Source: a virus (taxonomy: Duplodnaviria > Heunggongvirae > Uroviricota > Caudoviricetes). Taken from it: a stretch of DNA of 4,350 nucleotides. A program made the translations under genes and the position numbers. The number at the start of each line of letters is the position of its first letter. Position 1 is the first letter of the stretch. Location: the IMG/VR virus record IMGVR_UViG_2778261594_000008, one strand, 5' to 3'. Under the pieces are notes generated by a model, which did no database searches, was not told the DNA's origin, and saw only the letters and a program-made list of their open reading frames with translations. Positions 1 through 3,537 of the stretch are shown piece after piece.

Positions 1-1218
1 ATGAACAAACTGAGCGATACCTTGCTAAGGAAACTTCATGGTAAGCCAGCGGAGAAAAACACGTTTTATAGCGATGGCGGAAATCTGAGCGTGAAATATT
101 TAACATCAGGGAAATTAACCTGGTATTTCACTTACAGGGCAGGAACGGGAAGAGAGACACGACCGGAACGTATTAAGCTGGGAAATTATCCTGATCTGAG
201 CCTGAAAGCAGCCAGGGAAAAAGCCGCCCAGTGTCGCGCATGGCTGGCGGAGGGGAAAAATCCACGCCATGAGATGAATTACGCCGTACAGGAAGCGTTA
301 AAGCCGGTAACGGTTGGCGATGCGCTCACCTACTGGCTTGAGTCGTACGTAAAGGAAAACCGCGTGGATTATATCGCCCTGAAAAGGCGACTTAATAATC
401 ACGTAATACAGTACATTGGCGCTATGCCGCTGGATAAATGCGAGCTACGGCACTGGCTGGCCTGTTTTGACCAGGTGGCAAAGCGAACACCTGTTACTGC
501 CGGATTCGTGCTACAGACATGCAAGCAGGCGCTTAAGTTCTGCCGGAGGCGGCGCTTTGCAATCAGCAACGTTCTCGATGATCTGAACGTGGCGGACGTT
601 GGGAAAAAACCGGATATAAGCGAACGTGTCTTAAGCACCAAAGAACTGGGCGAGTTATTGCAGGCGCTGGATAAAAAAATATTTTCTCCTTACTACGTCG
701 CGTTAATTCGCCTCCTGATTGTCTTCGGATGCCGGACAGTAGAACTGAGGTTATCGGAGATCAGCGAGTGGGATTTTACCGAAATGCTATGGACCGTTCC
801 GAAGGAGCACAGCAAAACGAAGGTTGCAATATTCCGGCCCATACCGGAAGCGATCCTGCCGTTCGTCACGCGGCTGGTGGACCAGAACAGGCACACGGGC
901 TTATTACTGGGGGAAGTGAAACAGGAGGCTAGCGTATCGCAGTACGGCAGATTAGCGCACAGGAGGCTAAAACACCCTCAATGGTCATTGCATGACATCC
1001 GGCGCACCTTTACAACCATGCTGAACGATTTAGGCGTTGATCCTCACGTCGTGGAGCAGCTTACAGGCCACCAGATGCCAGGAATGCAACGCGTGTACAA
1101 CCATTCCCGCTATATTGATGCGAAACGCAATGCGCTTGATATGTGGGTGGAGCGGTTGGAGATACTGGCGGGAACACATGAAAACGTAACCACGCTACCA
1201 GTAACCAGAATAAAATAA
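1..1218 (+). CDS. int: Tyrosine recombinase / site-specific integrase, P4 (IntA-like) family, 405 aa
   Basis: ORF fills 1-1218. N-terminus has the arm-binding pattern typical of P4-type integrases (DGGNLSV...LTWYFTY). C-terminus has catalytic box I R (FGCRTVELR) and box II HDIRRT...H...VYNHSRY with the terminal Tyr. Length fits full-length family members. The ATG is at window position 1, so the promoter and att site are not visible. Confidence 0.92.
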   Translation: MNKLSDTLLRKLHGKPAEKNTFYSDGGNLSVKYLTSGKLTWYFTYRAGTGRETRPERIKLGNYPDLSLKAAREKAAQCRAWLAEGKNPRHEMNYAVQEALKPVTVGDALTYWLESYVKENRVDYIALKRRLNNHVIQYIGAMPLDKCELRHWLACFDQVAKRTPVTAGFVLQTCKQALKFCRRRRFAISNVLDDLNVADVGKKPDISERVLSTKELGELLQALDKKIFSPYYVALIRLLIVFGCRTVELRLSEISEWDFTEMLWTVPKEHSKTKVAIFRPIPEAILPFVTRLVDQNRHTGLLLGEVKQEASVSQYGRLAHRRLKHPQWSLHDIRRTFTTMLNDLGVDPHVVEQLTGHQMPGMQRVYNHSRYIDAKRNALDMWVERLEILAGTHENVTTLPVTRIK

Positions 1219-1310: not shown

Positions 1311-1401
1311 GAGGCCAAAAAGAATACAGATTTGTAAGCTACTGATTTTTAATGCTCAGCTGGTTTTTTATACATTAGTGAATTACGCGTTAAAGTGTGC
1401 G

Positions 1402-1438
1402 AAAAAAGGCATAAAACAAGATTTTATGCCTTTGTATT
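1402..1438 (+). terminator. Possible intrinsic terminator or bidirectional hairpin between int and the AlpA-family gene
   Basis: Stem GGCATAAAA (1408-1416), loop CAAGA, stem TTTTATGCC (1422-1430), followed by TTTGTATT and preceded by AAAAAA. The stem is AU-rich (3 GC pairs of 9), so strength is doubtful. Confidence 0.3.
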
Positions 1439-1520
1439 AACATGAATTTAAATGATTTTATCCTGATTATTCCTCTTTCTGTAAACCATGCGACACCAAC
1501 ATTTGCCAACTCTGAATCAT

Positions 1521-1592: not shown

Positions 1593-1781
1593 GTGTTAAG
1601 CACTGATCGGTTTATACGTGAAAAAGAATGCGAAAAGCTAACAGGCCTTAGCCGCTCATGCCGCTACCGCCTGGAAAAGGCCGGACAATTCCCATCACGT
1701 CGTAAACTTGGTGGGCGTTCTGTTGGCTGGTCTTTATCTGAGGTTTTGGCCTGGAAGGATAGCTGCAAGGCAGTTCACTAA
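1593..1781 (+). CDS. alpA: AlpA / Vis-family helix-turn-helix regulator (excisionase-like), 62 aa, GTG start
   Basis: Protein ...EKLTGLSRSCRYRLEKAGQFPSRRKLGGRSVGWSLSEVLAW matches the AlpA family pattern (TG.SR...Y.L...G.FP....LG.RSVGW...E...W). RBS AAGGGGG at 1581-1587, 5 nt before the GTG. Sits directly downstream of a P4-type integrase, as is typical. Confidence 0.8.
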   Translation: MLSTDRFIREKECEKLTGLSRSCRYRLEKAGQFPSRRKLGGRSVGWSLSEVLAWKDSCKAVH

Positions 1782-2285: not shown

Positions 2286-2465
2286 TTATTCTTTGGGTTC
2301 AATACCGCGTTGCTGTAATTCTTTTCGGATTATTCGTTTTATCCAAGCTGCTAAAGAGTCATCACCGTCTTGTTGTTGTGCTTTTTCCATCTTTTCCCGT
2401 AAGTCAGGATCTAAACGGAACTGGAAAGGAGGATTACCACGCCTTTCATTTTTGTGTGTTGACAC
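2286..2465 (-). CDS. Putative ribbon-helix-helix protein RHH-2 (59 aa, GTG start), paralog of RHH-1; may be degenerate
   Basis: Found by manual translation; not in the supplied ORF track. Sequence VSTHKNERRGNPPFQFRLDPDLREKMEKAQQQDGDDSLAAWIKRIIRKELQQRGIEPKE shows an RHH pattern (beta strand FQFRLDP, helix A, loop, helix B). Same length as RHH-1 and offset by exactly 685 bp. The only in-frame ATG (2390) would give a 34-aa fragment. The GTG overlaps the -35 of the opposing promoter. Confidence 0.4.
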   Translation of the reverse strand: MSTHKNERRGNPPFQFRLDPDLREKMEKAQQQDGDDSLAAWIKRIIRKELQQRGIEPKE

Positions 2466-2486
2466 GTCAATTACACTCCATATAAT
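2459..2486 (+). promoter_or_regulatory. Consensus sigma70-like promoter TTGACA-N16-TATAAT, rightward
   Basis: TTGACA at 2459-2464 and TATAAT at 2481-2486, both perfect hexamers with a 16-bp spacer. Homologous in position to the weaker rightward promoter of module 2 (TTGACG 3212-3217). Confidence 0.45.
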
Positions 2487-2494
2487 GTGTTTAT

Positions 2495-2506
2495 GTGTAT
2501 ATACAC
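2495..2506. promoter_or_regulatory. Perfect 12-bp palindrome GTGTATATACAC over the predicted transcription start; candidate operator
   Basis: Self-complementary. Flanked by GTGT (2487-2490) and ACACAC (2510-2515), giving an imperfect palindrome of about 30 bp. Half-site GTGT(A/T) resembles the module-2 operators. Confidence 0.4.
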
Positions 2507-2532
2507 ATTACACACAACTAGCACAAAAAACA

Positions 2533-2566
2533 ACGCCCCGCAGTGATGGGAACACATACGGGGCGT
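2533..2566 (+). other. GC-rich leader hairpin (module 1 copy): stem ACGCCCCG/CGGGGCGT, 18-nt loop, followed by TCTAACCAA
   Basis: Direct inverted repeat. Homologous to the 3281-3313 hairpin, including one compensatory pair change (C-G to A-T). No U-tract, so not a terminator. Confidence 0.5.
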
Positions 2567-2685
2567 CTAACCAAACCATTAATTGAGGTAACGATTATGG
2601 CTATAAAAGAGCATAGCTTACTCTTTATACACACACAAACGCCCCGGAAACGGAATAATCCGTTTCATAGTTCGGTTTTGTGCAC

Positions 2686-2913
2686 TCATCCTGGCGGTCG
2701 GTTTTTGCCGGATTTAAGCCGCCGTGGGTATTTATCGACAAAATCTTCAAGGGCAAATTTTTCTGGTGGCACTAAGCGCGGCGCTGGTGGTGGTATTTTT
2801 GTTCTGGTTAGTTCTTCCTCAAGTCTGGCGCAGGCTTCTGACTGCCTTTGCCGGATGATTTCATCATCTTGCGTTTGCGTGTCTTGTATTGGTGATAGTG
2901 TGTTGTTGGTCAT
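2686..2913 (-). CDS. Small hypothetical protein P2 (75 aa), paralog of P1; unknown function
   Basis: ORF with ATG start. AGGG RBS-like motif 8 nt upstream inside the end of the conserved element. Shares N-terminal MTN and the C-terminal F.LEDF.DKY.RR motif with P1. Confidence 0.65.
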   Translation of the reverse strand: MTNNTLSPIQDTQTQDDEIIRQRQSEACARLEEELTRTKIPPPAPRLVPPEKFALEDFVDKYPRRLKSGKNRPPG

Positions 2914-2921
2914 GATACTGC

Positions 2922-2965
2922 CCTGTAAAGCAATGCGCCGTAGTACCTCACACCACGGCGCTGAT
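2922..2965 (-). repeat. Copy 2 of the conserved 44-nt intercistronic element
   Basis: CCTGTAAAGCAATGCGCCGTAGTACCTCACACCACGGCGCTGAT. Differs from copy 1 at three positions, all in the predicted loop. Confidence 0.85.
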
Positions 2966-2970
2966 AGTGA

Positions 2971-3150
2971 TTATTCTGATTCTTTGGCCTTGCGACGCTG
3001 GCGGTATTCAACTTCCCGCTTTAATGCAGTTGTAACAAACTGCCCTGTACTTTCGCCGGGCATTTTTACCGCCTCAACATTGTTCATAACTTCATGTGGA
3101 ACCCTTGCCGCAACTGTTTGTGATTTTGCGTTTACTGCTTTTGTCGCCAT
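2971..3150 (-). CDS. Ribbon-helix-helix (Arc/MetJ/CopG-like) DNA-binding protein RHH-1, 59 aa
   Basis: MATKAVNAKSQTVAARVPHEVMNNVEAVKMPGESTGQFVTTALKREVEYRQRRKAKESE fits strand / helix A / G-x-S-T loop / helix B. ATG at 3150 has RBS GAGGGG 8 nt upstream. The track start at 3159 (GTG) would overlap that RBS, so the ATG is preferred. Confidence 0.7.
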   Translation of the reverse strand: MATKAVNAKSQTVAARVPHEVMNNVEAVKMPGESTGQFVTTALKREVEYRQRRKAKESE

Positions 3151-3198
3151 GTTGAGCACCCCTCATAAAAAACAAATGCAGTATGCAGGAAAAAAAAC

Positions 3199-3253
3199 AA
3201 GTGTTCAACACTTGACGTGTTTAACACCTCGATTTAAATTGGTGTTCAACACC
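3199..3253. promoter_or_regulatory. Divergent promoter region with three 11-bp palindromic operator-like sites GTGTT(C/T)AACAC
   Basis: Sites at 3201-3211, 3217-3227 and 3242-3252. Rightward promoter candidate TTGACG (3212-3217), 17-bp spacer, TAAATT (3235-3240). Leftward candidate TTGAAC (3208-3203 on minus), 17-bp spacer, CATACT (3185-3180). The operators overlap both. Confidence 0.5.
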
Positions 3254-3283
3254 TTATTTAGGCAAGGTGTAGAAACGACGAAA

Positions 3284-3310
3284 CCCCGCACTGTAGGAGC
3301 AGTAACGGGG
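3284..3310 (+). other. Leader hairpin (module 2 copy) in the 5' UTR of ORF A: CCCCG ... CGGGG with inner ACUG/CAGU stem, followed by TCTAACCAA
   Basis: Inverted repeat read directly; homologous to 2533-2566. Confidence 0.5.
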
Positions 3311-3342
3311 CTTCTAACCAACAACGTAAACGAGGAGCCGTT

Positions 3343-3537
3343 ATGGTTGCCGTAAATCATATACCACACCTTGTACACACACAAACGGCCTTTGTGTGGC
3401 GTTTTCTGGCACTGAGTGCCGGAGAATCTCAAATCATCCACGTAACCGCCTGGACGGAACGCGAAGCGCGTAACCTTTGCCCGTCCGGTTGTGTTGCTGT
3501 ATTTGCCGCCCGTATTCGCCAGGGGGTAGGCTTATGA
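3343..3537 (+). CDS. Small protein A (64 aa), possibly Icd-like (host cell division inhibitor-like) family
   Basis: RBS GAGGAG at 3332-3337, 5 nt before the ATG. Stop overlaps the start of ORF B (ATGA). The motif FVWRFLAL...WTEREAR...FAARIRQ recalls Icd-like small proteins of P4-like prophages; this is from memory and needs an HMM search. Confidence 0.6.
   Translation: MVAVNHIPHLVHTQTAFVWRFLALSAGESQIIHVTAWTEREARNLCPSGCVAVFAARIRQGVGL

Follow-up and report, generated by a model that had tools for sequence, protein, structure and literature searches.

A conserved small regulator gene that starts inside a predicted opposing promoter in a putative phage-satellite island

The stretch of DNA considered here, referred to as the window, is 4,350 nt of a Caudoviricetes record in IMG/VR (IMGVR_UViG_2778261594_000008), and the gene in question is RHH-2, a short leftward gene for a predicted ribbon-helix-helix (RHH) regulator. 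The window opens with int, encoding a P4-type tyrosine integrase, and an AlpA-family gene, both recognized by Pfam. On the 3' side of alpA there are two small leftward operons, followed by a rightward operon headed by an Icd-like gene that matches NF033153 with E = 3e-18. RHH-2 and the DNA in front of it are called module 1; the corresponding region around a second small regulator gene, RHH-1, is called module 2. A first-pass annotation, made from the window alone, had regarded RHH-2 as a gene with poor expression signals of its own that was perhaps decaying. The coordinates of the features discussed are collected in Table 1.

The GTG that begins RHH-2 (2465-2463, minus strand) is the first possible start after a stop codon. 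As the first-pass annotation had observed, it falls in the -35 hexamer of a promoter pointing the other way, here P(+)1, with which it shares two bases. With TTGACA, a 16-bp spacer and TATAAT, P(+)1 agrees with the consensus at 12 of 12 positions and is the sole such match in the window, the number expected in shuffled sequence being 0.01 +/- 0.10. Its transcript would be predicted to start near 2493-2495. Two other starts for RHH-2 were considered and rejected. A 71-aa upstream-extended product (MTHKYHTTGVIDVSTH...) requires an extra ATG that arises only where the spacer of a palindrome chances to have this sequence, and most loci lack it. Starting at an internal ATG, at codon 26, would cost the protein the conserved segment RRGNPPFQFRL.

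A protein search returned 117 clusters of RHH-2 homologs, mostly 59 aa long and with the N-terminus MSTHKNERRGNPPFQFRLDP conserved, from Escherichia, Shigella, Citrobacter, Enterobacter, Klebsiella, Serratia, Pantoea, Pectobacterium, Yersinia, Proteus and Providencia, as well as Xenorhabdus, Photorhabdus, Edwardsiella, Frischella and Mannheimia. Taking one genome per species gave 59 loci, 58 of which were analysed in full; beyond Enterobacterales, these also take in Orbales, Pasteurellales and Oceanisphaera. The overlap seen in the window recurs across this set. TTGACA lies over RHH-2 codons 1-3 in about 50 of the 58 loci, with a TAnnnT hexamer 17-18 bp away, typically TAATGT at 18 bp. The TATAAT at a 16-bp spacer is specific to the E. 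coli lineage of the window, namely the window itself and its tandem relatives L001 and L065, and it overlaps a TAATGT at the 18-bp spacer, which is the family-wide form of the P(+) -10 box. In most species the hexamer at 16 bp reads TGTAAT, which was rejected as a -10 box for want of the critical A and replaced by TAATGT at 18 bp.

Constraint on the start region can be read at synonymous sites. The first codons of RHH-2 are (G/A)TG TCA ACA CAC in nearly every locus, the reverse complement of which contains TTGACA, and synonymous change is almost absent from codons 1-5: TCA encodes Ser2 in 33 of 35 sequences, Thr3 is ACA in all 33 and His4 is CAC in 36 of 37, in contrast to Ser37, for which four codons (TCT, TCG, TCC and TCA) are in use. 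A sub-family among loci L022-L043 (Citrobacter, Klebsiella, Yersinia, Gilliamella and others) has ATG at codon 5, apparently a shifted start, and the ancestral GTG is there part of an AGGTG or GAGGTG ribosome-binding site. The old codon 2 is TAA in L030 and the old codon 1 is GTA in L037, and in both the DNA sequence GTGTCAACACAC, or the -35-like sequence, is kept. The hexamer of L037 reads TTGATA. Since the start-region DNA persists where the start has moved to codon 5 or a stop is present, the constraint acts on the DNA and not on the peptide. Comparison of the loci thus indicates that the overlap of the RHH-2 start with a predicted -35 box is a family-wide arrangement and not a local accident.

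RHH-2 itself has the marks of a functional gene. The open reading frame (ORF) is intact in the window and in 57 of the 58 species loci, and in the exception, L030, the stop at codon 2 is bypassed by the downstream ATG at codon 5 used in its sub-family. Over codons 6-56 of 37 sequences, the mean proportion of synonymous differences (pS) is 0.85 and that of nonsynonymous differences (pN) 0.12, and the median pairwise ratio of nonsynonymous to synonymous substitution rates (dN/dS) among unsaturated pairs is 0.05. RefSeq annotates RHH-2 as a normal coding sequence (CDS), not as a pseudogene. In Shigella flexneri locus L002, the island has no regulator of this kind other than RHH-2, which adjoins a full icd gene at 97% identity; the protein matches that of the window at 58 of 59 residues, the last one differing (E in the window, G in L002). 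Judged by these comparative data, RHH-2 is an intact regulator gene under purifying selection in what appears to be a phage-satellite island; the gene is real and conserved, and probably expressed. The comparison of orthologs that the first-pass annotation had proposed as a check on RHH-2 revealed no pattern of frameshifts, and its suggestion of decay towards a pseudogene is refuted. Two Citrobacter loci (L022 and L032) each hold a same-strand tandem pair of RHH-2-like genes, the two copies being about 50% identical, which is another instance of regulator doubling.

The idea of decay had come from the comparison with module 2. It holds that RHH-2 is a duplicate of RHH-1 that has lost about 65 bp together with its promoter and ribosome-binding site and is now silent or becoming a pseudogene. 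Several features fit such a history: module 1 is shorter than module 2 by 63 alignment columns, RHH-2 has a GTG start with a distant GGAG, a simple scan at a threshold of at least 9 of 12 matches finds no minus-strand promoter, and the rightward gene of module 1 is truly truncated. The layout of module 2, however, is that of a different family. RHH-1 is a YlcI/YnfO protein whose true start is the ATG at 3150, as annotated by PGAP in a relative of 95.8% identity and as indicated by the invariant family N-terminus MATKAVNAKSQ. The opposing -35 box of module 2, TTGACG, starts at 3212, giving an interval of 61 bp, close to the 62 bp of the first-pass annotation, which was also right that the interval is about zero in module 1. 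Among 80 IMG/VR loci of the YlcI/YnfO family, representing 48 distinct upstream sequences, the opposing TTGAC is found 59-62 nt from the ATG in 46 of the 48, and 79 of the 80 have the regulator's own -10 box, (C/T)AT(A/G)NT, at 28-30 nt from the ATG. The layout is therefore fixed within each family but differs between the two, and this difference is what the "65 bp" represent: the shorter length of module 1 stands (two gaps of 37 and 26 columns in the pairwise alignment), but a deletion does not, the zero interval being shared by about 50 of the 58 RHH-2 loci. Nor is the descent of RHH-2 from RHH-1 demonstrable, as hhalign detected no homology between the two protein families (probability 0.4%, E = 0.15). 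With an intact, selected ORF and a nearly identical copy in a single-module Shigella island on the other side of the balance, we regard decay after duplication as extremely unlikely.

The two modules are nevertheless alike in several respects: island position, regulators of 59 aa with a predicted strand-helix-helix pattern, GTGT...ACAC-type boxes, a downstream leader stem-loop and an icd-like gene. They differ in that the promoters of the RHH-1 module stand back to back with the fixed 59-62 nt interval and three or four GTGT-N3-ACAC operators, whereas those predicted in the RHH-2 module stand face to face at zero interval with GTGT-N4-ACAC dyads. By self-BLAST of the window, similarity between the modules is confined to 2202-2292 against 2885-2977, and the promoter regions are not alignable. 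This similarity corresponds to a hairpin element of about 60 nt (GCGCCGTGG...CGGCGC, then ATTGCTTTACAGG; 2229-2290 and 2914-2975, minus strand) between the regulator stop and the downstream small ORF, which at 78.7% is the sole clear nucleotide similarity between the modules. It is present in 47 of the 80 RHH-1-type loci, but copies beside RHH-2 are limited to E. coli and Shigella. An attenuator is one possibility for this element, a recombination joint another. The candidate operator boxes of module 2 (window 3201-3254; loci L061-L140) change in concert by YlcI/YnfO lineage, reading GTGTCAGCCAC, GTGTCGGACAC, GTGTCTTACAC or GGTGGAGGCAC while the geometry stays fixed. This looks like a switching of operator and regulator specificity, that is, immunity types.

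A promoter for RHH-2 can be proposed on the far side of the opposing one. The candidate, P(-)1, consists of TTGnnn, 17 bp and TAATGT. In about 50 of the 58 loci its -10 box (TAATGT or TAnnnT) is found 35-41 nt away from the start codon: in typical loci it ends exactly 39 nt from the start, and in the divergent sub-family described below at 35-41 nt. The predicted transcript would start near 2498 and have a leader of about 33 nt, for which little structure is predicted (-4.5 kcal/mol, z = +1.0). A purine-rich element 8-10 nt from the start is conserved across relatives, although in the window the ribosome-binding site is indeed weak, with GGAG at 10 nt and a GTG start, as had been noted. Weak translation signals are usual for autoregulated repressors.

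The first-pass annotation had instead held that RHH-2 has no promoter and must be read through from upstream. In its strongest form this would mean that RHH-2 is transcribed in this island only as part of a message running from RHH-1 through orf75 and RHH-2 to orf67, and that TTGnnn-17-TAATGT is conserved as operator half-sites and as the base of a leader stem. Such read-through is plausible in the window: the hairpin between the modules (2647-2668) is weak and is followed by CGGGGCGUUUGUGUG, a poor U tract. The TAATGT does lie within a dyad (2483-2510), and the TTG does abut the leader stem. However, in 55 of the 58 species loci the RHH strand carries, upstream of the gene, no homolog of any minus-strand gene of the window, and where an icd homolog is recognisable, in 14 loci, the upstream neighbour of RHH-2 is divergent. 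Read-through therefore cannot be the general source of mRNA, and a promoter of its own is required; strong purifying selection on the gene likewise implies some promoter within the intergenic region of about 135 bp, where no candidate other than TTGnnn-17-TAATGT combines conserved hexamers, a conserved 17-bp spacing and a constant distance from the start codon. We consider exclusive dependence on read-through unlikely, while some extra read-through input from module 2 is possible in the tandem arrangement of the window because the inter-module hairpin lacks a good U tract.

The rightward transcript can be traced through its leader. The stem-loop downstream of P(+)1 has z = -3.3 and compensatory changes in 6 of 11 pairs. 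In an alignment of 33 loci, 91.7% of the cells are paired, and 46 cells carry double changes, against a shuffled expectation of 9.7 +/- 3.3 and no more than 5 in slid controls. A second hairpin, whose loop contains the ribosome-binding site of the first rightward gene, covaries as well (CGTTA/TAACG, CATTA/TAATG and CGATA/TATCG). This covarying RNA requires a rightward transcript whose start lies between the RHH gene and 2533, where the stem-loop begins. Module 2 has a counterpart stem-loop (3281-3313, plus strand), likewise followed by TCTAACC and a hairpin with the ribosome-binding site in its loop. The location of the leader upstream of an icd-like gene recalls the antisense-RNA regions of P1 c4 and P4 CI; a search of the whole window against Rfam left the leader stem-loops unmatched and found no C4- or CI-type RNA.

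Two dyads accompany the predicted promoters. One is a perfect 16-bp palindrome (ATGTGTAT/ATACACAT), conserved across loci as ATGTGT-N4-ACACAT, and it sits in a wider dyad (2483-2510) whose arms are two TAATGT boxes, at 2483-2488 on the plus strand and 2510-2505 on the minus strand. The second GTGT-N4-ACAC dyad lies 41 bp away, centre to centre. They are candidate binding sites, and likely ones, for RHH-2, the palindrome being the candidate main operator. At the level of sequence, convergent -35/-10 pairs are conserved on both strands, with the RHH gene beyond one of them and the covarying leader and icd-like operon beyond the other. A distance of 16 bp separates the predicted -10 boxes, and one of about 5 bp the predicted starts; with this spacing of the -10 boxes only one RNA polymerase could occupy the region at a time.

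The explanation that we find best, and hold to be fairly likely, is a compact switch of face-to-face promoters governed by an Arc/Mnt-like regulator. The control region would consist of two overlapping sigma-70 promoters facing each other, which would account for a start codon of RHH-2 within the -35 box of P(+)1. P(+)1 would drive the structured leader and the icd-like/replication operon rightward, and P(-)1 would drive RHH-2 leftward through the leader of about 33 nt, transcribed across the core of P(+)1. RHH-2 would repress P(+)1 and set its own level through the two dyads. What the comparisons show directly is a conserved sequence, intact ORFs under purifying selection, a constraint on codons 1-5 at the DNA level and a covarying leader RNA; that the promoters are active, where their transcripts start, which sites are operators and that RHH-2 is a repressor are inferred from comparative sequence. 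The suggestion in the first-pass annotation that RHH-2 expression is coupled to occupancy of the opposing promoter would survive in altered form: the coupling is very probable, but at the level of transcription and not of translation, because two RNA polymerases cannot share overlapping promoters.

Several points weigh against this proposal. The TTGACA hexamer is embedded in a GTGT-N4-ACAC dyad, so that its conservation could partly reflect operator constraint. The -35 box of P(-) amounts to TTG and three variable bases abutting the conserved base of the leader stem-loop, and its conservation could be owed to the leader RNA. In the window, P(+)1 no longer heads a replication operon, as the truncated icd' ends at about 2645, and the target of RHH-2 control may differ here from that in single-module islands. 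Finally, the assignment of RHH-2 to the RHH fold is not statistically firm. The AlphaFold2 monomer model has no called strand, the conserved residues 13-19 being extended only; the top Foldseek matches in the PDB, among them NikR, PutA, MazE9, TacA and ParD, all have E > 1; a sequence profile search of the PDB gave no match at E < 0.4; no Pfam family was found for RHH-2; and the score on the NCBIfam model YlcI_YnfO_N (NF041551) is 20.0 bits (E = 5e-4), below the cutoff of 30.

The first of these points can be extended to an explanation in which TTGACA is part of a protein-binding dyad and not a -35 box, the real rightward promoter lying elsewhere or depending on an activator such as AlpA, so that the overlap with RHH-2 would be merely apparent. 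The columns of the dyad (TGTGTgTTGACAc) are conserved around the hexamer, the TGTAAT found at 16 bp in most species lacks the key A at position 2, and Gram-negative phage-inducible chromosomal islands (PICIs) have been reported to be AlpA-activated (PMC6092414). Against this, a TAnnnT stands at 17-18 bp in nearly every locus, the window lineage carries the full 12/12 consensus, and the covarying leader needs a transcript start between the RHH gene and 2533. The divergent RHH-2 sub-family (50-57% identity, strand residues KQIALRV) is also informative: its repeat motifs are different, yet it still begins ATG TCA ACC, which contains TTGACA, with a TAnnnT 17 bp off. Retention of the hexamer beside different repeats favours a promoter over a purely operator role, and we think it improbable that TTGACA serves only as a protein-binding site.

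As to the nature of the protein, an RHH regulator is the probable identity. RHH-2 is matched by PHROG 228, "Arc-like repressor" (E = 1.5e-6), and the AlphaFold2 monomer has helices at 20-33 and 38-52 with a predicted local distance difference test score (pLDDT) above 90. Most of the top Foldseek matches, including the five named above, are RHH proteins, which is consistent with the fold. RHH-2 with orf67 could instead be a type II toxin-antitoxin pair, RHH-2 being an autoregulating antitoxin rather than a switch regulator. The two-gene arrangement with the RHH gene first would suit such a pair, as would a weak NCBIfam match to a VapB antitoxin (E = 0.012) and the naming of some homologs as "HicB family". 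The partner, however, is not constant: 24 of the 58 loci have no ORF on the same strand within 150 nt downstream, and in the rest the downstream genes are heterogeneous and mutually unrelated. The unit of orf67 and hairpin belongs to RHH-1-type modules and is found beside RHH-2 only in E. coli and Shigella, and what is conserved as a neighbour is the divergent promoter, leader and icd-like operon. A toxin-antitoxin role is accordingly very hard to credit. In loci L004, L010, L018, L046 and L047, an ORF of about 50 aa just after RHH-2 has a signal-peptide- or lipobox-like N-terminus (MKKIIILAAVLIVAAFLLKSC...), as variable cargo in the slot of orf67.

The proposed face-to-face switch can be compared with three characterized systems. 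In the lytic/lysogenic switch of the P2-like phages P2 (Pe/Pc) and 186 (pR/pL), face-to-face promoters 40-60 bp apart interfere with each other (PMC7498355). The module of RHH-2 is predicted to resemble them in having facing sigma-70 promoters, one for the regulator and one for an early or replication operon, with operators over and between. It would differ in the 16-bp separation of the -10 boxes and the 5-bp separation of the starts, such that the transcripts barely overlap, in the location of the regulator's start codon within the other promoter's -35 box, and in a 59-aa RHH-type regulator in place of a CI-type repressor. P2-like phages are the helpers of P4-type satellites.

In P22 immI, Arc represses both of the overlapping promoters Pant and Pmnt (PMC2724298). 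A small RHH regulator beside overlapping opposed promoters, with palindromic operators in the overlap (here candidates), is common to the two cases; but Pant and Pmnt are divergent (PMC2724298) whereas those predicted here are face to face, RHH-2 has no detectable sequence relation to Arc or Mnt beyond the PHROG profile, and the setting is a satellite island with an icd-like/primase operon as opposed to an antirepressor gene. In the Ecl18kI/SsoII restriction-modification system, experiments showed that the promoters, initially predicted to be divergent, face each other. Pr is located within the M gene, its transcripts beginning at the M start codon, and polymerase at the stronger promoter masks the weaker, the regulator shifting the balance indirectly (PMC2760811). 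There, too, the start codon of one gene overlaps the promoter of the other, although the overlap is of start site and start codon rather than of -35 box and start codon, and the regulator is the N-terminal domain of a methyltransferase that times restriction-modification, in contrast to the satellite maintenance proposed here. From its sequence, the RHH-2 module would work in the manner of these systems but be tighter than any of them, with a regulator of a different, uncharacterised family.

A more far-reaching reading, which we offer as tentative and somewhat doubtful, is that the RHH-2 module is a previously unrecognised compact bistable switch of Gram-negative phage satellites, built from two mutually exclusive facing promoters, with RHH-2, or elsewhere a YlcI/YnfO protein, as maintenance repressor. 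The first codons of the regulator would double as the -35 box of the promoter under its control; in the window, P(+)1 would fire antisense through the RHH-1 operon, placing RHH-2 above RHH-1 in a two-tier lock on the replication operon. The maintenance repressor of Gram-negative PICIs was called unclear in 2018 (PMC6092414). In the literature searched, no functional description was found of RHH-2 or YlcI/YnfO proteins, of repressors of capsid-forming PICIs (cf-PICIs) or of RHH regulators in PICIs, and one paper lists YlcI/YnfO merely as a "prophage-associated protein". If correct, the proposal would give many Enterobacterales satellites (PICIs, cf-PICIs and P4-like islands) a candidate maintenance regulator that can be tested, and would provide a clean natural case of dual coding in which five codons are frozen at synonymous sites as -35 box and operator. 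For annotation it would advise caution: such genes should not be taken as promoter-less or decaying, as the promoter may lie beyond the opposing one, as experiments showed for Ecl18kI.

Table 1. Features of the two regulator modules and of their surroundings in the window
Feature	Position	Strand	Remarks
int	1-1218		P4-type tyrosine integrase
AlpA-family gene	1593-1781		
RHH-2 CDS	2286..2465	-	59 aa, GTG start; predicted Arc/Mnt-like ribbon-helix-helix regulator
Second GTGT-N4-ACAC dyad	2454..2465	.	Over -35 box and RHH-2 start codon; conserved columns; candidate
-35 TTGACA of P(+)1 (predicted)	2459..2464	+	Reverse complement of gTG TCA Aca, RHH-2 codons 1-3
Shine-Dalgarno-like GGAG	2476..2479	-	10 nt before GTG; purine-rich GGAG/GGGTG/GAGTG kept in relatives
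-10 region of P(+)1 (predicted)	2481..2488	+	TATAAT 2481-2486 overlapping TAATGT 2483-2488
16-bp perfect palindrome	2493..2508	.	Between the -10 boxes, over both predicted starts; candidate operator
Candidate -10 TAATGT of P(-)1	2505..2510	-	Ends 39 nt before GTG
Candidate -35 TTGTTT of P(-)1	2528..2533	-	TTGnnn at conserved 17-bp spacing; spacer sequence variable
P(+)1 leader stem-loop	2533..2566	+	Conserved; then near-invariant TCTAACC (5/7 positions invariant)
Second leader hairpin	2577..2594	+	Ribosome-binding site of first rightward gene in loop; weakened in window copy
Truncated icd' 5' end	2597..2645	+	About 16 codons (MAIKEHSLLFIHTQT) similar to module 2 icd, then module 2 junction
RHH-1 (YlcI/YnfO family)	2971..3150	-	NF041551, E = 1.4e-16, 60.2 bits, above cutoff; PGAP annotation
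Module 2 control region	3180..3240	.	Back-to-back promoters (predicted)
P(-)2 (predicted)	3208-3203 / 3185-3180	-	TTGAAC / 17 / CATACT
P(+)2 (predicted)	3212-3217 / 3235-3240	+	TTGACG / 17 / TAAATT
GTGTT(C/T)AACAC operator boxes, module 2	Start 3201, 3217, 3242	.	Three boxes, candidate
Icd-like gene	3343-3537		Module 2, full length

The truncated icd' joins the 3' flank of orf75 (window 2597-2690), and the two-module arrangement is common to L001, L064 and L065, while Shigella L002 has a single-module version. The window appears to derive from an L002-type island by insertion of module 2 (orf75, RHH-1, the promoter region and the second leader), which left icd' behind. The tandem junction is found at a coverage of 80% or more in about 110 of 5426 E. 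coli genomes, and for the module 1 query some 220 E. coli copies reach that coverage. Transcripts from P(+)1 would run antisense into orf75 and RHH-1 unless stopped at the inter-module hairpin, and the arrangement may be a two-tier lock or a recombination scar.

The closest relative of the window is, by its gene content, a capsid-forming PICI-type phage satellite inserted in tqsA. The whole window has a copy of 95.8% identity in E. coli RM10466 (NZ_CP028381), where the island sits between two halves of tqsA. The window stops before the primase, single-stranded DNA-binding protein (SSB), capsid and terminase genes, which are known from the RM10466 copy: beyond the equivalent of the window, that island encodes a DUF927 primase-type protein, SSB, major capsid, head decoration and small terminase proteins. 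A PICI is recognized by int, alpA, a divergent regulatory region and primase or replication genes, and a cf-PICI in addition by capsid and small-terminase genes in the absence of tail and lysis genes. This gene set is present, with int and alpA in the window and the capsid and small-terminase genes in the RM10466 island. Part of the region matches 1652 of the 5426 complete E. coli genomes, and megablast against the INPHARED phage collection returned no match to it. Pfam likewise contains no family matching RHH-1, orf67 or orf75. The Rfam search of the whole window at E <= 1 yielded two chance-level matches only, to ST7-OT3_4 and to the Brucella sRNA BSnc120 (27.9 bits, against a gathering score of 114). 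The latter falls on an AT-rich hairpin between int and alpA (1369-1447, plus strand), for which chance similarity or a terminator is the likeliest explanation. The region upstream of alpA is flanked, at 1255-1300 and 1500-1560, by clusters of short ACAA/CACAA-type repeats, for example acaacgtgaaacaatgtgcaacaacgtgacacaatcacgaacaa, which may be arm-type sites for the integrase or sites bound by AlpA.

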